DNA of 44,155 bases, from the sequence record MK931440.1; one strand, written 5' to 3'. Origin of the DNA: Escherichia phage Shashou. Made by a program: the position numbers and the translations under genes. Each line of letters starts with the position of its first letter. Within the stretch, counting starts at the first letter, position 1. Below are positions 5,826-42,492 of this stretch, in pieces. The notes beneath the pieces were generated by a model. That model did no database searches. It saw only the letters and a list, made by a program, of their open reading frames with translations, and was not told the DNA's origin.

Positions 5826-6212
5826 ATGAATCCTAAAGCAACTGTCGTAGCTGGAGCATGTTTCATCCTCCTGACATACGGCTACGGAATCTACCAGTAT
5901 CGCAGCGGCTGGAACGAAGGCCGGGCGAATCTCGTTTCGCAGCAACAGCAGGAAGCACAGGCTGAGTTAGCGAAGAAAACACAACGGCAGCAGCAGGACG
6001 AATCTAAGGCCGCCGCTGCTGACAACGAAGGCAAGACGAAATCAGAGGTGATTACCCGTGAAGTCGTTAAGTACATTAAAACGCCTGGCCGCAGCGTGTG
6101 CACTTTCGACGATGCTCGCGTCCTGCTCAAGTCCCACGCCGTTGCCAACGCCAATTCCATCCCCGGATACGACGATGATGCAGCCGCCGTGCAAACTGGC
6201 ACCGCCAAGTAG
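5826..6212 (+). CDS. i-spanin (Rz-like)
   Basis: N-terminal TM segment (ATVVAGACFILLTYGYGIY) followed by Q/E/K-rich coiled-coil; overlapped by lipoprotein ORF in +1 frame. Confidence 0.6.
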   Translation: MNPKATVVAGACFILLTYGYGIYQYRSGWNEGRANLVSQQQQEAQAELAKKTQRQQQDESKAAAADNEGKTKSEVITREVVKYIKTPGRSVCTFDDARVLLKSHAVANANSIPGYDDDAAAVQTGTAK

Positions 6213-6321
6213 CGACGCTGACGAGGATTTAGCTATCGACGTTCAGAACGCCGAATGTGTACGGCAACTGAGACTGAAAGTGTTCATGTTGCAGGATTAC
6301 GTGAGGAATATTCTGGAATAG
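6058..6321 (+). CDS. o-spanin (Rz1-like lipoprotein)
   Basis: GTG start; signal peptide ending in lipobox LASC; proline-rich mature region; overlaps 3' end of Rz-like ORF in a different frame. Confidence 0.6.
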   Translation: MKSLSTLKRLAAACALSTMLASCSSPTPLPTPIPSPDTTMMQPPCKLAPPSSDADEDLAIDVQNAECVRQLRLKVFMLQDYVRNILE

Positions 6322-7107: not shown

Positions 7108-8157
7108 ATGGCAATTACCACTATCGGCGATATCGTAACTGGCAACGTACCCGTCCTTCTGTCCTATATGACTGAGGACCCGGTAGAGAAAACTGCGTTC
7201 TTCCAGTCCGGCATCCTGGCCCCGACCCCGTACGCTGCTGAGATTGCTCGCGGTCCGTCCAACGTCGCTAATATTCCTTTCTGGAAAGCGATTGATACCT
7301 CTATCGAGCCGAACTACTCGAACGATGTATATCAGGACATCGCCACTCCACGCAACGTACAAACCGGTGAGATGATGGCACGCGTCGCTTATCTGAACGA
7401 AGGCTTCGGACAGGCAGACCTGACTGTTGAACTGACCAGCCAGAACCCGCTGCAATCTGTTGCCGCTCGTCTGGATAACTTCTGGCAGCGTCAGGCACAG
7501 CGCCGTCTGATTGCTACCGCTCTCGGCCTGTATAACGACAACGTAACGGCAACCGATGCTTACCACGAGCAGAACGACATGGTTATCGACGTGTCTGCGA
7601 CTCTGGGCTTCGATTCTGGCGCGTTCATTGACGCTACCCAAACCATGGGTGACGCGCTGATGGGTAATGGTGGTGAAGTGCTGGGGGCAATCGCGATGCA
7701 TAGCTTCGTGTATGCGCAGGCGCGTAAGCAACAGCTTATCGACTTCATCCGCGATGCCGACAACAACACCATGTTCGCCACCTACCAGGGCTACCGCGTG
7801 ATTGTTGACGACAGCATGACCGTAGTTGGTACTGGCTCTAGCCGTAAGTTCATCTCCATCATCTTCGGCAACGGCGCTATCGGTTATGGCGAAGGCAATC
7901 CGTCCAATCCGCTGGAATACGAGCGTGAAGCGTCCCGCGGTAACGGCGGTGGTGTTGAAACCCTGTGGACCCGTAAGACCTGGTTGCTGCATCCGCTGGG
8001 TTACAGCTTCACCAGCGCGGTAATCACCGGTAACGGTACTGAAACCGTAGCCCGCTCTGCTTCCTGGCAGGACCTGGCGAACGCCTCCAACTGGAACCGC
8101 GTTGTTGACCGTAAGCATGTGCCGATTGCCTTCCTGGTAACTGGTGTAAAGGCTTAA
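7108..8157 (+). CDS. major capsid protein
   Basis: 349-aa ORF after scaffold, followed by strong intrinsic terminator; typical position and size. Confidence 0.8.
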   Translation: MAITTIGDIVTGNVPVLLSYMTEDPVEKTAFFQSGILAPTPYAAEIARGPSNVANIPFWKAIDTSIEPNYSNDVYQDIATPRNVQTGEMMARVAYLNEGFGQADLTVELTSQNPLQSVAARLDNFWQRQAQRRLIATALGLYNDNVTATDAYHEQNDMVIDVSATLGFDSGAFIDATQTMGDALMGNGGEVLGAIAMHSFVYAQARKQQLIDFIRDADNNTMFATYQGYRVIVDDSMTVVGTGSSRKFISIIFGNGAIGYGEGNPSNPLEYEREASRGNGGGVETLWTRKTWLLHPLGYSFTSAVITGNGTETVARSASWQDLANASNWNRVVDRKHVPIAFLVTGVKA

Positions 8158-8173
8158 GGTTAAGTTATAATCG

Positions 8174-8197
8174 AGAGGGACTTCGGTCCCTCTTTTC
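8174..8197 (+). terminator. intrinsic terminator after major capsid gene
   Basis: gagggac-ttcg-gtccctc followed by TTTT. Confidence 0.7.
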
Positions 8198-8218
8198 ATT
8201 TACTAAGAGGACTCCTCA

Positions 8219-8560
8219 ATGGCAGACGTATTGAAACGACGCACTACGGGTGTTTCTGCGGATACAGTTGGCGCTAAGATTGACATGGAGACTATTTCTC
8301 CAGCGTCTTTCTCCCCCGCGCTCGCTGCAACCACATCCGTCACAGCGGGTGAAACTATGACACTGACCGTAACAGTAACTGGCGGTCTGAAGCCATATTC
8401 ATATCAGTGGTACAAAGATAACAACGCTATCGCCGGGGGTACCGCGGCTACCTATGCTAAAGCGTCGACCACTGCCGCCGATTCCGGCACGTATAAAGTG
8501 GTTGTTCACGATGTGTATGGTAATATTATCTCCAGCAGCACTGTAGCAACTGTGTCTTAA
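8219..8560 (+). CDS. Ig-like domain protein (putative head decoration)
   Basis: KPYSYQWYKDNNAIAGG...SGTYKVVVHDVYG Ig-like motif; paralog of C-terminus of 5022..5483. Confidence 0.55.
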   Translation: MADVLKRRTTGVSADTVGAKIDMETISPASFSPALAATTSVTAGETMTLTVTVTGGLKPYSYQWYKDNNAIAGGTAATYAKASTTAADSGTYKVVVHDVYGNIISSSTVATVS

Positions 8561-24750: not shown

Positions 24751-24888
24751 CTACTCTTCGGATAACTTCTCCAGTACAAACGCCAGTTGCGCATTAGCGG
24801 CGTCTCTCTGTTGCCGTAGTCGTAGAACCTCTTCTTCGAGTTCCTCGATACGTTTTTGCAATGCCGGAATTGGGGCTATGATGTTCAT
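24751..24888 (-). CDS. small coiled-coil protein (45 aa), hypothetical
   Basis: ATGA overlap with helicase stop; heptad-like IEELEEEVLRLRQQ; ends at terminator; not in ORF track. Confidence 0.4.
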   Translation of the reverse strand: MNIIAPIPALQKRIEELEEEVLRLRQQRDAANAQLAFVLEKLSEE

Positions 24889-27350
24889 TTCTTACCTCGT
24901 CTCTTCATGTAATTAAGCAATTCTTCCTGTACAGATTTCTTCTCGTCGGTGCGCGCGGCAACAACCTCATCCAGCGTGTCTTTAGCGACGATGTGATAGA
25001 GGAACACCGGGCGCTCGTGTCCAGCCTGTTTCTGACGAACAGGGCCTATGCGCTCGACAACCTGCAAATAGTGCTCGAGGTTCCATCCCTGACTTATAAA
25101 CGCCAGATGATGCCCTCCATCCTGTAAATTCAAACCATGGCCGGCTGACGCGGGATGAACACATAAGATTTCGATTTCACCACGGTTCCACGCTTCCATC
25201 TGCTTATTACCCTTAGCTCCTTTGGCAAACGCCTTAGCCTGCGGGAATCGCTTAAGTATGCGCTCCAGTTCGTGTTTAAACTGATAGGCCACCAGTAACG
25301 GCGCGCCCTGCAACTCCTCAACAATGGACTCCAGTGCGTCCAGTTTCGTGTCATGCACTTTCTCCCAGTCTTTCGTTGCTTCGCCATCTGGCCCTGATAC
25401 ATACACGGCACCGGACGCAATCTGGAGACACTTTGATGTCTTCGCTGCCGCGTTAGCGGCTTCAACTTCCCCGCTCTCGAGTTCCGCAAATAACTTCTCC
25501 TCCATATCGATGTACGCCTGACGCGCTTTCTTCGGCAGGTCTATTTCAACAGGAACGATAATCGGCGCTTCGCAACCGAACCACTCTGCAGCATCGATAG
25601 TGAGACTGATATCCTTCATCTTCTGATGAATCTCGGTATCCGCGCCCGGGCGAGCGTGATACTCACGCGCCATAGCCGATTTGCCTTTCTGTATCGAATT
25701 AAACCAGCGGTCGGTAAACGCCGTATACGAAGAACCAAGTCGCTCGCCTGCGTCTATAAACCAGTTCTGCCCCCACAAGTCTTTGAGGCCGTTTGGTGAC
25801 GGCGTACCGGTCAGGTTGATAAAACGCTTAACCTTACCAAACGCCACTTTACTAAGCGCCTTTGCTCGCTTGCTGCCACCAGAACGGCTGCGGAACGATT
25901 TAAGCTTCGTGCTCTCGTCGGCAACGATAACTGTGAAAGGCCAGTCGTCTTTGCCGTAGTAGTCAATCAGCCACTCGATAACTTCGTAGTTAGTGCACAC
26001 CACGTTAGCGTCGGACTCAAGCGCCGTGATGCGGCGCTTCTCCGAACCGGTCGCATCTACTACACGCAGGCACGGGAAACCCCAACGTGCCTGTTCCGCG
26101 GGCCACGTGCCAGACGCAACACGCAACGGGGCGAGGATTAACACGCGGTCGTCGTCATTAAGTTGCCCATTACGGAACAGGCGGTTGAGAACCCACAACG
26201 TTGAGCTTGTATTGTGCGTGACAGTGAAGTCCCCCAATAAAAACCTACTGTCACCGTCGATAGTGAAGCCGAAATAATCATCTACGCCGACCGGGGTTAT
26301 GGATTCTATACCAACGTTAAGCACGTTCTTATTAATATTACGCTTCGGTAAATTCTGGTGGCGTCCTCGCACGAAAGGTACCTCAGAAAAATCGCCAGAT
26401 ACCGACACACGGAAGTAGTCACCCCAAACATCAGTGTTTGCGCAACGCTTACGAGTTTTCTTCTTGTAAGCAGCAAAACCAAGAGAACGGCATAGATAGC
26501 AAAAATCATCAGCAAGTCGCTCGCTTACCGAAATCCAGTCAAAACCCGCTTTAGACAAATCGCAGTAACCATCACTATCCAGAAGCCCCGCCAGCAATTC
26601 TAACCGCTGTCGCCGGTCGCCGCATTTGTAACTATGCGGTATATGCTTATTGTTCAGGACACCCGCCGATTTCAGCGCGTGCGTAAACCCGTGCTTCTTA
26701 TGACCTGTGTTGCCGTAAGATATACTCCATGTAAGTCCTTCTTTTCGTATTTGCATCCCATTACGTGCTGCGTACGACTCAAGATAAGCCCTTATTTCCT
26801 TTTCGTTCTCTCCTGATGTTATGGCCCCCGACGACGAAGTACCGTCACCCAGCCATAACCCCATAAGGTACGGAGGCAATAAAGCCTCGTCCTGCTCTTT
26901 CCTTGTAAAATCGACAGGTACCCGCCAACCCTTAAGATACCCATTAGGTCCGGTTACATATTTCGGCAACTTAAGCCAGTCGCGGACGCTTATGTCGAAA
27001 ACGGTATTATCTGGCCATGAACCTTTTGCAATCCCTGTAGTAGTTCGCAGGGATAATATATGGCTTTCGTTGACCGTATACGACTCTCCTTTTCGCGGTT
27101 TAACCTCGTACATCATCTCCCGGCCTCTACCGAGAGACAGTACATTTCTAGGCGTTGAATCCGGCCCCATAAGCACGTCACCGACGATGACGTCTTCTAC
27201 TTTCTTGGTCGTACCGTCAAACATAATAACTTCCGTCCCGCGTTTCAGGCACTTGCCGCTGCCCATACTAGCCCAGATATTGCAACGTGGGTGCTGTAAC
27301 ATAAACGACGTCATTATTTTCTGGTATTCCCTGCGCCTAAATTTACTCAT
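24885..27350 (-). CDS. SF2 (SNF2-like) helicase interrupted by an intein
   Basis: Walker A split as MGSGK | intein | TSSTLW; DExx box VIVADEST; C-terminal helicase motifs incl QVVERIGPVRQ. Confidence 0.8.
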   Translation of the reverse strand: MSKFRRREYQKIMTSFMLQHPRCNIWASMGSGKCLKRGTEVIMFDGTTKKVEDVIVGDVLMGPDSTPRNVLSLGRGREMMYEVKPRKGESYTVNESHILSLRTTTGIAKGSWPDNTVFDISVRDWLKLPKYVTGPNGYLKGWRVPVDFTRKEQDEALLPPYLMGLWLGDGTSSSGAITSGENEKEIRAYLESYAARNGMQIRKEGLTWSISYGNTGHKKHGFTHALKSAGVLNNKHIPHSYKCGDRRQRLELLAGLLDSDGYCDLSKAGFDWISVSERLADDFCYLCRSLGFAAYKKKTRKRCANTDVWGDYFRVSVSGDFSEVPFVRGRHQNLPKRNINKNVLNVGIESITPVGVDDYFGFTIDGDSRFLLGDFTVTHNTSSTLWVLNRLFRNGQLNDDDRVLILAPLRVASGTWPAEQARWGFPCLRVVDATGSEKRRITALESDANVVCTNYEVIEWLIDYYGKDDWPFTVIVADESTKLKSFRSRSGGSKRAKALSKVAFGKVKRFINLTGTPSPNGLKDLWGQNWFIDAGERLGSSYTAFTDRWFNSIQKGKSAMAREYHARPGADTEIHQKMKDISLTIDAAEWFGCEAPIIVPVEIDLPKKARQAYIDMEEKLFAELESGEVEAANAAAKTSKCLQIASGAVYVSGPDGEATKDWEKVHDTKLDALESIVEELQGAPLLVAYQFKHELERILKRFPQAKAFAKGAKGNKQMEAWNRGEIEILCVHPASAGHGLNLQDGGHHLAFISQGWNLEHYLQVVERIGPVRQKQAGHERPVFLYHIVAKDTLDEVVAARTDEKKSVQEELLNYMKRRGKK
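26211..27251 (-). mobile_element. intein with LAGLIDADG homing endonuclease domain (about 347 aa)
   Basis: Begins with Cys after GSGK, ends THN followed by Thr; LAGLIDADG-type motifs LMGLWLGDG and LAGLLDSDG; excision restores GSGKT. Confidence 0.75.
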
Positions 27351-38615: not shown

Positions 38616-38650
38616 TTACGCTGCTACACAGCAGCGTATCATTTTTCTCA
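38616..38650 (+). terminator. intrinsic terminator
   Basis: tacgctgct-acac-agcagcgta followed by tcatttttc. Confidence 0.6.
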
Positions 38651-38791: not shown

Positions 38792-38941
38792 ATGGTTACT
38801 TTGATGATTATGGAGTTCGAAAACAGCGCTGCAACTTACCGCGAGATGACTATGGCGCAGGCGTACCACCTGGCTAAACACAGCAACTTCTACAAGGCTC
38901 AAATCATTAATGAGTTTGGGGTAATTGACTATGAATTTTAA
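38792..38941 (+). CDS. small hypothetical protein (49 aa)
   Basis: RBS gagaggagagg downstream of promoter 38732..38760; not in ORF track. Confidence 0.4.
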   Translation: MVTLMIMEFENSAATYREMTMAQAYHLAKHSNFYKAQIINEFGVIDYEF

Positions 38942-39203
38942 CAGCTACACCGTGACCGTTGATTTTGAGGGGCTGGAGTTGCCCCTCCCTAACAACTACC
39001 GGTACATAACGCGCGATAGTAATGGGTTTATTCAGGGGTGGAAGAACAAACCGACGGATACTGAGTTCGGGATGTCAGGAGGAGAAGAGTTGCCGGTCAC
39101 TTTCGGGCATCAGAGTAGCAATGGAGAACTTAAAACGGTGATTCGTAAGTATCGTCGCCGCGATAACACCGGGCTTATCGCAATAACAGGCGCTGTTGAA
39201 TAA
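38931..39203 (+). CDS. hypothetical protein
   Basis: ATG at Met3 of track ORF. Confidence 0.45.
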   Translation: MNFNSYTVTVDFEGLELPLPNNYRYITRDSNGFIQGWKNKPTDTEFGMSGGEELPVTFGHQSSNGELKTVIRKYRRRDNTGLIAITGAVE

Positions 39204-39222
39204 GCGAGAGGAGAGACAGAAG

Positions 39223-39711
39223 ATGAGTAACAAAAACGAAGTATTCGAGTACCTGATTGACCAACTACGGCAGCAGGTAAATAGCAACCCGTACAAGCAA
39301 CAGTGCGAAGACCTGGCGCACGAGGTGTTGTCACTCAAGAATCAGTTACGTGATGCGTCAGAACATATTAAGGAGTTGCATAAGGCGTTGGCTGCAGCTA
39401 CGGGTGACGTAGGCGCTTATATAGCAGCAGAGCAATCTGGTTGCCGTAAGGAAGATACTCAGTACAACGCCTGGAGGCCGCATTATGGTGCACGACAACC
39501 TGTGCCGGATGGGACTATGGTATTTATCCGGTATCGCAACGGGGAGGAGCTGAAACACAGTGTAGCAGCAGAAAAGAGGTTGTGGATTTGGGATGGAACA
39601 TACGCAGACATAGTGGAATACAAGATTGACACACAGGAATGCGAGCACAATTGGTTATATAGTAAACACAAAAGTGGCTTCGTTTGCTTTAATTGTGGGG
39701 CGCGTAAGTAA
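39223..39711 (+). CDS. hypothetical protein with C-terminal Cys/His cluster
   Basis: Start at Met10 of track ORF with RBS gagaggag; C-terminal CEHNW...CFNC. Confidence 0.5.
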   Translation: MSNKNEVFEYLIDQLRQQVNSNPYKQQCEDLAHEVLSLKNQLRDASEHIKELHKALAAATGDVGAYIAAEQSGCRKEDTQYNAWRPHYGARQPVPDGTMVFIRYRNGEELKHSVAAEKRLWIWDGTYADIVEYKIDTQECEHNWLYSKHKSGFVCFNCGARK

Positions 39712-39911
39712 TGACCAGCGTCCTATTTATATGGGTACTGTACGCAGGCCAGTTACAACTAGCGGCAACAGAAACGTTTTACTCACTGGATGCGTGCCAG
39801 GCTGCGGCACGCAACGCAGAGAACGCGCACTTCCTGTTTCAGGATAAGCCGATTGATACTGAGGTGCGCGCGACATGTTCAACGAAACGATTAGCTAAGC
39901 AGGAGAAATAA
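39711..39911 (+). CDS. hypothetical protein with hydrophobic N-terminus
   Basis: Stop-start overlap; N-terminal VLFIWVLYAGQLQLAA. Confidence 0.45.
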   Translation: MTSVLFIWVLYAGQLQLAATETFYSLDACQAAARNAENAHFLFQDKPIDTEVRATCSTKRLAKQEK

Positions 39912-40122: not shown

Positions 40123-40376
40123 TGGTGCAGAGATACGACTTAACAGAATACTACGTGAGTGGTGCGGTAGATATAACGCCTGTCCCGGACTCGCATGAAG
40201 GGCGTTATGTAAGCTACGAAGACTACGCGCAACTCGAAGCTGAACTCATGAAAGTAAAAGCCGCAGCCCGTTGTCTTGTGCGAGAAGCAGGTAAGGTGTA
40301 TAGCGATTATAGTGACGTTATAGCACCTGAGTTTGTAGACCAGCAAACCATACACGAACTAGGTATTCTGTTATGA
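40122..40376 (+). CDS. hypothetical protein (MVQRY paralog 2)
   Basis: Start at Met16 of track ORF; begins MVQRYD. Confidence 0.5.
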   Translation: MVQRYDLTEYYVSGAVDITPVPDSHEGRYVSYEDYAQLEAELMKVKAAARCLVREAGKVYSDYSDVIAPEFVDQQTIHELGILL

Positions 40377-40666
40377 GCCTTGCAACTGACATCCTGAAAC
40401 GCAGCGGCCTTGCGCCGCTGTCGCCGAGAGCAAACACTCAGATATACAAGCGCCGCCGTAATACGCTGTACCCAGAGATACAGGAACGACGTAAAGCTAT
40501 CCGCGCCTGTGGATTCCAGAACGGGAAGGCCGTGAATCTCGGTGAGTTTAAAACACAAGAACGCGCCGCAATCGCTAATCGACTATTTAATTACTGGAAA
40601 TCGCTGGGGTACGATGATATTCCGACGAAACCCCAGAGACGACAATACATCTGGAGGCACAAATGA
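40373..40666 (+). CDS. hypothetical basic protein
   Basis: ATGA overlap with upstream gene. Confidence 0.5.
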   Translation: MSLATDILKRSGLAPLSPRANTQIYKRRRNTLYPEIQERRKAIRACGFQNGKAVNLGEFKTQERAAIANRLFNYWKSLGYDDIPTKPQRRQYIWRHK

Positions 40667-41100
40667 CTACTATCGCGTTTGACGGAAAGACGATGGCCTG
40701 TGACACCCGAGTAACCGGAGACCACATCTACAACACAGATACCAAGATATATGAGAACGAGTTTGTTGTTATCGGTGTAGCAGGCAATGCTGAGGCTGGT
40801 ATCCTTTTAGTGAAGGACGATAGTATTTTAGTACCTAAGCACTACGATTTTGATTTCTCTGCTTTGGTGTGGGTTAAAGACATCGAAACGTTGTGCAAAG
40901 TAGAATTCTATAAATCATGGGATTGTGCACTAAGTTCGGTTATCCCTGTTGCAGATGGTTTTGCCGCCGTCGGTTCCGGTGCACCTTATGCACTGGCGGC
41001 TATGTATTTAGGTAATACGGCAACACGTGCAATTACTATAGCAGAGCAATTCGACCCTAACACCGGCGGCAATATTATTACCAAACAACTATTAGGATAA
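40663..41100 (+). CDS. HslV-like Ntn-hydrolase (proteasome beta-subunit family) peptidase homolog
   Basis: Begins MTTIAFDG (Thr directly after Met as in HslV); VVIGVAGNAEAGILL and AAVGSGAPYALAAMYLG match HslV blocks VIAGFAGGTADAFTL and IAIGSGGPYAQAAARAL. Confidence 0.6.
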   Translation: MTTIAFDGKTMACDTRVTGDHIYNTDTKIYENEFVVIGVAGNAEAGILLVKDDSILVPKHYDFDFSALVWVKDIETLCKVEFYKSWDCALSSVIPVADGFAAVGSGAPYALAAMYLGNTATRAITIAEQFDPNTGGNIITKQLLG

Positions 41101-41159
41101 TTCCTAACCGTGCTATCCTCCAGTTACTGCATACTTAATACGCACCTGGAGGATTCATC

Positions 41160-41468
41160 TTGGATAAATTTACTGAAACAGTGCCGGTGTGGCTTCTCAC
41201 CGCCGCACTGGTCGGTGGATTGGTCGGACTAAGACAACATAAAAAGTCTATATCCGGTCCAGTCGACGGACTGGTATTTCTTCTCACCGGCTTCGCGTGT
41301 GCCGTTTTCGGTGCACCTCTTGCCGCTCAATGGTTCGGTATTACCGGTGAGCGCGAGATAGCTGGCCTCGGATTCATCATTGCCGTTCTCTGGATGCCTA
41401 TCTATTCCCGCCTTTCTGGCATTGTCGCCGGAGAATACATCGCACGTCGCGGAGGTGGCAATGAATGA
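41160..41468 (+). CDS. holin (putative)
   Basis: TTG start with RBS ggagga; three hydrophobic segments; immediately upstream of endolysin. Confidence 0.55.
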   Translation: MDKFTETVPVWLLTAALVGGLVGLRQHKKSISGPVDGLVFLLTGFACAVFGAPLAAQWFGITGEREIAGLGFIIAVLWMPIYSRLSGIVAGEYIARRGGGNE

Positions 41469-41742
41469 GTTATTCTGGTTTGGCGGTATGCTCGCAATCG
41501 GGGGCGCATCGCTGTTTAACGTATACCACCCCAGTGTAGACGATGGCCTGTTTGGTCGTGTGCTGTATATTCTCACTGCTATTGTCTGCGCTGCCGGTTG
41601 TATCCACCTGTTACAGGGCAGCGTGTCACCAACGTTGCCGGAAACACTAATCACCCTGGTAGCGCTGCGACAGATTCGTCAATCGTGGCTGCATTACCAG
41701 TCGAAAGGAGGACATAAGCGTGTCTCGAAACATTTCAGATAA
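41461..41742 (+). CDS. holin/antiholin-like membrane protein (putative)
   Basis: ATG at Met28 of track ORF; two hydrophobic segments; overlaps holin end and endolysin start. Confidence 0.45.
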   Translation: MNELFWFGGMLAIGGASLFNVYHPSVDDGLFGRVLYILTAIVCAAGCIHLLQGSVSPTLPETLITLVALRQIRQSWLHYQSKGGHKRVSKHFR

Positions 41743-42223
41743 TGGATTGCAGTTCAAGAAAGCGTGGGAGAAGTTTCGTGGAACTGCGTACAAAGCCACA
41801 AAGAACGAGAAATACTGGACTATAGGCTGGGGCCATACCGGGCCAGATGTGTACGAAGGGCAGAAGATTACCGAGGGTCAGGGGTTGCTGTTACTTAACC
41901 GTGATATGCAGTGGGCGGTGAAAGCAGTAGACGAGGTGGCGCATCCATCGCTTACCCAGGCCCAGTTTGATGCCGTTGTTGACCTGGTGTTTAACGCCGG
42001 AACTGGTGTTATCGCAGCGACTACCGGAACCGGTAAGGCGCTACGGCAGGGGGACATCGCAGCCTTACGGCACAAGATGAGCCAGTTCATTAACCAGCGC
42101 AACCCTAAGACCGGTAAACTTGAACCTGTTCTGGGCCTGCGCCGTCGTGTAGCGGGTCGCCTGGCGCTGTTCGACGGTAAACCGTGGCAGGAGGCGGAGG
42201 ATATCGGGAGGGCTGTTAAATGA
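41720..42223 (+). CDS. endolysin (T4 lysozyme-like glycoside hydrolase)
   Basis: GTG start with RBS aaggagg; AWEKFRGTAYKAT...YWTIGWGHTG resembles the T4-lysozyme catalytic region. Confidence 0.8.
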   Translation: MSRNISDNGLQFKKAWEKFRGTAYKATKNEKYWTIGWGHTGPDVYEGQKITEGQGLLLLNRDMQWAVKAVDEVAHPSLTQAQFDAVVDLVFNAGTGVIAATTGTGKALRQGDIAALRHKMSQFINQRNPKTGKLEPVLGLRRRVAGRLALFDGKPWQEAEDIGRAVK

Positions 42224-42456: not shown

Positions 42457-42492
42457 ATCCCGGCCCTGACCCAGCCGGGATTTTTTTTATCT
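42457..42492 (+). terminator. intrinsic terminator after lysis cassette (2 of 2)
   Basis: cccggc-loop-gccggg followed by run of about 9 T. Confidence 0.65.

Follow-up and report, generated by a model that had tools for sequence, protein, structure and literature searches.

A probable PPH-family threonine hydrolase of the proteasome-beta/HslV superfamily encoded by an accessory gene of a lytic phage

The open reading frame at 40663-41100 on the plus strand, coordinates that include the stop codon, encodes a protein of 145 amino acids that is a PPH and not an HslV orthologue. Positions refer to the window, the whole stretch of 44,155 nucleotides that was analysed. The PHROG match of the protein, its identity with a protein of phage Sciku, profile comparisons and a structural model together predict an Ntn threonine hydrolase of the proteasome-beta/HslV superfamily. 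The complete reading to which we lean is that of an accessory threonine peptidase working independently of HslU.

Results

Gene and protein sequence

The protein begins MTTIAFDG and its sequence reads, in order, MTTIAFDGKTMACDTRVTGDH...AVGSGAPYALAAMYLG...FDPNTGGNIITKQLLG. The ATG at 40663 is the earliest start codon downstream of the preceding in-frame stop, and an N-terminal extension or propeptide is therefore impossible. A ribosome-binding site GGAGG was read from the sequence at 40653-40657 (+), 5 nt before the ATG, and is the one annotated for the Sciku gene CPT_Sciku_062. The frame, length and N-terminus given in the first-pass annotation match the sequence exactly. The threonine that it placed directly behind the initiator methionine and the GSG block, AVGSGAPYALAAM, are both present in the translation.

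The window matches Escherichia phage Sciku (MK931439.1; Kagunavirus, Guernseyvirinae) at 99.9% identity, and the PPH protein is 100% identical to CPT_Sciku_062, annotated in GenBank as "protease, Ntn aminohydrolase superfamily". Relatives are annotated as "peptidase HslV family" or "ATP-dependent protease". The one difference between the window and Sciku is a segment of about 1,020 bp at 38849-39868 that is absent from the Sciku record and about 94% identical to Snoke and Schulenburg. Its open reading frames are 38925-39203, 39196-39711 (171 aa, phrog_6094, unknown function) and 39711-39911. With this segment missing from the Sciku record, the window is either a Sciku-like variant or the deposited record contains a deletion.

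Sequence family

The only convincing match of the single sequence was PHROG 1040, 'peptidase HslV family' (E=1.2e-35), with the query spanning only positions 14-154 of a profile 277 positions long. The Pfam family Proteasome (PF00227), which we take to be MEROPS T1, was matched at E=0.18 and 11.9 bits, under the gathering cut-off of 22.4; some PPH relatives do have a precomputed PF00227 match. The NCBIfam HslV equivalog models TIGR03692 and NF003964 gave 15.3 and 15.1 bits against cut-offs of 157.75 and 137. A phmmer search of the PDB with the single sequence matched HslV chains over the GSG block only, and a shallow profile built from close relatives likewise recovered just this block. A deep profile was therefore needed. 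PADLOC gave no match.

An exhaustive profile search collected 4088 representatives at the 50%-identity level (E<=1e-3). The relatives are nearly all 135-160 aa long, with a median of 146 aa, and begin MTTIA[WFY]DGKT[LM]AAD. The family alignment was made from 130 diverse relatives and has a mean column identity of 24%. Compared by hhalign, the family profile matched E. coli HslV with a probability of 97.2% (E=3.7e-11, 134 columns) and the T. acidophilum proteasome beta subunit with a probability of 85.8%. Searched against the PDB with hmmsearch, it found HslV (8e-12), proteasome beta5 (2e-10) and BPH (5.6e-10) at nearly equal values, HslV being best by a narrow margin over the other two.

The resemblance of the 145-aa protein to proteasome-beta/HslV proteins is far beyond chance. 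Its proteasome-beta fold and its place in that superfamily of Ntn hydrolases are assigned with near certainty, and its membership of the PPH family is very probable. The earlier description of the protein as HslV-like stands as far as the superfamily is concerned. The part of it that points to HslV orthology falls, the score being 15 bits against a cut-off of 158 bits and beta5 and BPH being equally close. The protein is also shorter than HslV, as had been noted, with 145 against 176 aa.

Some relatives depart from the common length or architecture. Viral homologues of 260-280 aa were found (BFVD A0A1W6DWU9, A0A5B9NBU4, A0A2I7R6C7 and A0A6G5YGZ5), one of them 62% identical to the phage protein over 131 columns; these may be C-terminally extended proteins of the 'RPC' type, or reading frames called wrongly. 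Among metagenome relatives, P0210 has a C-terminus of DnaJ-like CxxCxGxG zinc-finger repeats, and the tails of P0175 and P0301 are rich in Cys. The N-terminus of P0232 resembles a signal peptide and ends in ...SANA|TTIAWDG, where cleavage by signal peptidase would expose Thr1.

Predicted structure

AlphaFold2 with the 130-sequence alignment gave a model with a proteasome-beta fold (pLDDT 90.3, pTM 0.85). A Foldseek search with this model returned proteasome beta, HslV and BPH structures at E~1e-7, TMq 0.64-0.73 and a probability of 1.00; the TMq was 0.73 for S. aureus HslV and 0.71 for BPH. The search also returned 39 viral structure clusters. The model has a short helix H1 (residues 43-51) and keeps H3 (107-115) and H4 (120-130). 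Helix H2 is absent. It is replaced by a loop of 13 residues after H1, in the 'pore-loop' region (residues 52-64; 40816-40854, +), which has the lowest confidence in the model (pLDDT about 66) and is followed by the next strand at residues 65-71.

Catalytic residues

Residues were mapped by adding HslV and T. acidophilum beta references to the family alignment; the references were matched to PDB chains 1e94 (one conservative difference) and 3c91 (identical). Family conservation and column mapping together define an N-terminal catalytic block, residues 2-28 (40666-40746, +), with Thr2, Asp14 and Lys28. Thr2 corresponds to the nucleophile Thr1 and is threonine in 127 of the 130 relatives and serine in the other three; the sequences of 127 relatives begin M-T. 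Asp14, which corresponds to Asp/Glu17, is kept in 129 relatives, and Lys28, which corresponds to Lys33, is invariant (130/130). The motif Gly38-Val-Ala-Gly41 (40774-40785, +) contains the backbone-acting oxyanion-hole position: Gly38 corresponds to Gly47 (HslV Gly45) and is glycine in 108/130 and alanine in 16/130 relatives. Gly41, the counterpart of HslV Gly48, is glycine in all relatives but one (129/130).

In the GSG block, Gly104-Ser105-Gly106 (40972-40980, +), both glycines are found in every relative (130/130 each). Ser105 corresponds to proteasome Ser129 and HslV Ser124, and is serine in 120/130 and threonine in 7/130. The last motif, Asp131-Pro-Asn-Thr134-Gly135 (41053-41067, +), is equivalent to proteasome Asp166-x-x-Ser169-Gly170. 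Asp131, corresponding to Asp166, is kept in 123/130 relatives; Thr134, corresponding to Ser169, is threonine or serine in 113/130 (87%); and Gly135, corresponding to Gly170, is glycine in 117/130. HslV carries Cys159, Thr162 and Asn163 in these three columns, where the phage protein is more proteasome-like than HslV-like.

The comparison with HslV by alignment and structure prediction thus revealed neither a non-Ntn fold nor missing catalytic residues. Thr2, Asp14, Lys28, Gly38, Ser105, Asp131 and Thr134 are all present, in agreement with the proposal of an Ntn-hydrolase of the proteasome-beta/HslV superfamily. The protein is likely to be a catalytically competent hydrolase.

Interface with HslU

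HslV offers HslU a docking surface that comprises the apical helices H1 and H2. The pocket on HslV that receives the C-terminal tail of HslU is lined by Phe54, Phe57, Ala79/Lys80 and Gln114 (PMC6429459). Arg86, Arg89 and Lys90 of HslV form a basic pore cluster; mutation of this cluster severely lowers HslV activity, and HslU binding remodels the region (PMC5777263). In the alignment, PPH has gaps at Ala79, Arg86, Arg89 and Lys90 and a proline, Pro95, at Gln114. The columns of Phe54 and Phe57 are hydrophobic, with Ile47 and Val50 in H1. Without helix H2, PPH has nothing equivalent to Ala79, to Lys80 in its helical setting or to the Arg86/Arg89/Lys90 cluster. Just two H1 positions of the pocket stay hydrophobic, and pairing with host HslU is therefore unlikely.

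No AAA+ unfoldase is found in the deposited whole-genome annotation, where the P-loop proteins are helicases only. This agrees with the first-pass observation that the window has no HslU-like partner. One of its helicase genes, a DNA helicase at 24885-27350 (-), contains an annotated intein (record 26208-27251). No ATPase gene lies beside PPH in the other phage and prophage loci examined. That PPH works independently of HslU is considered reasonably probable.

Genomic context

The PPH gene is the last in a run of small genes on the same strand that begins after a terminator-like site at 38617-38638. Directly upstream is an open reading frame of 97 aa (40373-40666, +; phrog_9632, unknown function), the stop codon of which overlaps the PPH start in the sequence ATGA. 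An identification of this 97-aa product as an AP2-type DNA-binding protein found no support in the domain and PHROG matches. Directly downstream are two holin genes (41160-41468 and 41488-41742, both +) and an endolysin gene (41720-42223, +), recognized by annotation and by the cassette's matches to phrog_2359, phrog_2508 and PF00959. The first-pass placement of PPH next to the lysis cassette is accordingly correct. The Sciku record annotates a terminator behind the endolysin gene (record 41431-41465, about 42458-42492 in the window), and PPH is probably co-transcribed with the cassette at 41160-42223. Lysis genes thus occupy two separate places in this phage: the i-spanin and o-spanin genes are found at 5826-6321, inside the head-morphogenesis module and some 35 kb away from holins and endolysin.

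The order PPH-holin-holin-endolysin is common to Kagunavirus and Jerseyvirus, with PPH proteins about 65% identical between them. Elsewhere the gene is found between lysozyme and terminase genes (locus L041), in a nin-like region (L044), immediately ahead of the genes presumed to encode terminase and portal in a prophage (L046) and beside a tRNA in Seoulvirus jumbo phages. In the prophage L046 (7473-7814), the gene two upstream of PPH has a faint Pfam match to Acb2_Tad1_hairpin, an anti-defence sponge; PPH could there sit in an anti-defence or accessory neighbourhood.

The sister phage Schulenburg (MK931438.1) is almost the same on either side of the gene but is missing about 418 bp (L050 770-990 compared with 40560-41200 of the window). 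The deletion is almost exactly the PPH reading frame. Schulenburg keeps the upstream reading frame intact with its C-terminus (IWRHK*), the last ~24 nt of PPH, the holin ribosome-binding site and the lysis cassette. Among phage records, the capsid protein was found at no less than 80% identity in 461 and PPH at no less than 60% identity in 296; with the same cut-offs, the records named Escherichia numbered 126 for the capsid protein and 31 for PPH. About a third of the Guernseyvirinae records are without PPH. The Schulenburg deletion and these counts together identify PPH as an accessory gene and not part of the lysis machinery. From the genome comparison, the gene would seem to be dispensable and its loss harmless to the phage. 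Its position beside the lysis genes is lineage-specific and incidental. The link to lysis implied by the first-pass annotation is accordingly weak, as Schulenburg lost PPH with the cassette intact and other phages place the gene elsewhere.

Homologues in bacterial chromosomes

A chromosomal, non-phage PPH homologue was found in Falsiroseomonas/Roseomonas (Acetobacteraceae), in five loci (L003, L004, L005, L006 and L010; match 8001-8420 in each). The gene order in these high-GC loci was established by targeted tblastn and direct inspection, and is pyrB, PPH, a Bug/TctC-like receptor on the opposite strand, pyrC, plsY and dprA. Additional membrane-protein paralogues are inserted in L003 and L006. 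The non-phage contexts named in 2021 were those of Pseudoalteromonas and Mesorhizobium only (PMC8665760).

Discussion

The PPH family was described in 2021 by Fuchs et al. as proteins of about 140 residues from Caudovirales and prophages of (mainly) Proteobacteria (PMC8665760). The same paper places PPH in group I, where it radiates from BPH as HslV does; it describes PPH as free of a propeptide and, with RPC, as the only homologue without H2 (PMC8665760). The protein studied here agrees with this description in its 145 aa, in having no propeptide, in the missing H2, in a beta-sandwich core with Thr1/Asp17/Lys33/Gly47 and in its distribution in tailed phages and prophages, with homologues in 348 phage records. 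No difference was found among the features compared. Since the family was described in 2021 and this protein carries a GenBank annotation, the novelty implied by the first-pass annotation is not justified; the family and the Ntn-protease annotation of this protein are already public and not new. The presence of HslV without HslU in phages had also been remarked on in a phage genome paper of 2020 (PMC7823757). No experimental study of any PPH, whether biochemistry, purification or knockout, was found in the literature.

PPH shares with HslV the fold, the MTTI start with a threonine to be exposed by methionine removal, Asp17, Lys33, the oxyanion-hole glycine and the GSG serine, and like HslV it is a compact subunit that lacks S12/H5 at the C-terminus. 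PPH differs from HslV in being about 30 residues shorter, in lacking H2, Ala79 and the Arg86/Arg89/Lys90 cluster, in having Asp/Thr/Gly where HslV has Cys159/Thr162/Asn163, and in having no adjacent hslU. HslV itself builds two hexameric rings, a dodecamer that HslU and ATP activate. The beta subunits of the 20S proteasome (T. acidophilum beta, beta5) have the same fold and the full catalytic set including Asp166/Ser169/Gly170, but differ by their propeptides, by H1 and H2 contacting the alpha ring, by a C-terminal H5 and by a length of about 200 aa or more. BPH (PDB 5ovs/5ovt) is a group-I protein that likewise lacks a propeptide, a known ATPase partner and the HslU-interface residues, and it is close to PPH both in profile (E 5.6e-10) and in structure (TMq 0.71). 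It differs in its length of about 200 aa, in having H2 and a long acidic pore loop, in forming tetradecamers and in being encoded by a chromosomal, stress-linked gene (PMC5777263). BPH cleaves neither casein nor the standard peptide substrates (PMC5777263). As it is the closest characterised stand-alone relative, hydrolytic activity of PPH cannot be assumed. Connectase is a proteasome-like protein that has also lost helices of the H1/H2 pair (PMC8665760). It differs in lacking both H1 and H2, in a helical S3/S4 insertion that lies above its active site, and in being a monomeric ligase, and it is a weak structural match only (Foldseek rank 41, E 6.5e-4).

The following mechanism is proposed. 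Host methionine aminopeptidase, which accepts threonine at the second position and also matures E. coli HslV from MTTI, would strip Met1. Thr2 would thereby be exposed as the nucleophile and work with Lys28 and Asp14; with an oxyanion hole at Gly38, the residues Ser105, Asp131 and Thr134 would support peptide-bond hydrolysis. Activity probably requires, as in other family members, that identical subunits assemble into rings stacking through H3 and H4; these two helices are the main ring-ring contacts in the proteasome-like family (PMC8665760). ATP would not be needed, and the enzyme may act on peptides, on unfolded proteins or on a single specific protein. As PPH is without H2, and hence without the basic pore cluster and some of the pocket for the HslU tail, the activity is most likely independent of HslU and ATP.

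Several other roles have to be weighed against the HslU-independent peptidase. The earlier suggestion of pairing with host HslU corresponds to a functional HslV substitute that docks on the host ATPase and redirects the ATP-dependent HslUV protease. The E. coli host encodes HslU, PPH shares the MTTI start and the GSGxPYAxAA block with E. coli HslV, HslV is narrowly its top PDB profile match, and hydrophobic residues are kept at the Phe54 and Phe57 columns. With HslU present in the host and the H1 positions hydrophobic, a weak or altered interaction is still conceivable. The suggestion is weakened by the loss of H2, by the missing counterparts of Ala79 and Arg86/Arg89/Lys90 and by the replacement of Gln114 by Pro, which deprive PPH of part of the tail pocket and of the pore cluster. 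In addition, PPH scores about ten times too low for the HslV equivalog models, beta5 and BPH are equally close in the profile search, and HslU does not associate with BPH, itself a compact homologue of group I (PMC5777263). Docking on HslU is therefore held to be improbable. A different chemistry at the same active site, either connectase-like sequence-specific transpeptidation or ligation or the hydrolysis of non-protein amides, is a little less probable still. It is suggested by connectase itself, a proteasome homologue without H1 and H2 that acts as a ligase (PMC8665760) and that is among the Foldseek matches, and by the inertness of BPH on standard peptidase substrates (PMC5777263). PPH, however, lacks the S3/S4 helical insertion that defines connectase, matches connectase far more weakly than it matches beta subunits, HslV or BPH, and all other characterised members of the family are peptidases.

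A role in the timing of lysis, by processing or degrading a holin, an antiholin or another lysis regulator, would suit the gene order kept in Kagunavirus and Jerseyvirus, the common strand, the short gaps and the lack of a strong terminator between PPH and the cassette. Schulenburg, however, lost exactly PPH and kept the cassette with its ribosome-binding site, about a third of Guernseyvirinae records are without PPH, other phages carry it in a nin-like region, before terminase or near a tRNA, and the Acetobacteraceae homologue is chromosomal, between pyrB and pyrC; such a role has a slight chance of being correct. Phages inhibit host proteases, as T4 PinA inhibits Lon, and PPH is small and without regulatory elements. 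It is nevertheless very unlikely to serve, in the manner of PinA, as a decoy for which catalysis is irrelevant and which titrates or poisons the HslV or HslU of the host, because a nucleophile and a set of catalytic residues that are near-invariant at 24% mean column identity are hard to explain without catalysis. The idea of a prohead protease for capsid maturation, to which the position just upstream of terminase and portal genes in some prophages could point, can hardly be entertained. The phage has an SPP1-type module of scaffold, capsid and gp7-like proteins that has no requirement for a protease, no prohead protease is found in the genome annotation, PPH is about 33 kb from the morphogenesis module and seemingly dispensable, and the known prohead proteases have a different fold.

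Proteases of the proteasome type usually belong to the machinery of cells. A viral version without the ATPase-coupling elements of HslV therefore raises the question whether a subunit of 145 residues can form a gated degradation chamber, and a second one, of what a lytic phage gains from a mini-proteasome. The question as such was posed already in 2021. To these questions the present analysis adds a high-confidence model, conservation figures for the whole family, residue-level evidence against HslU docking and a further non-phage chromosomal context of PPH, in Acetobacteraceae. It also adds the natural and precise deletion in Schulenburg, which provides a ready-made isogenic comparison. Beyond the HslU-independent peptidase, a more speculative proposal, doubtful as it stands, is that PPH is a free-standing, ATPase-independent mini-proteasome with which virulent phages eliminate a single specific protein. 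A factor in host defence or in the stress response, or else a protein that regulates when lysis occurs, might be that target. The accessory pattern, the location among small early or moron-type genes, the strict active site and the lack of a partner gene are compatible with this proposal. If it is true, the proteasome family would gain in PPH its first functional viral member, and no smaller self-compartmentalising protease would be known.
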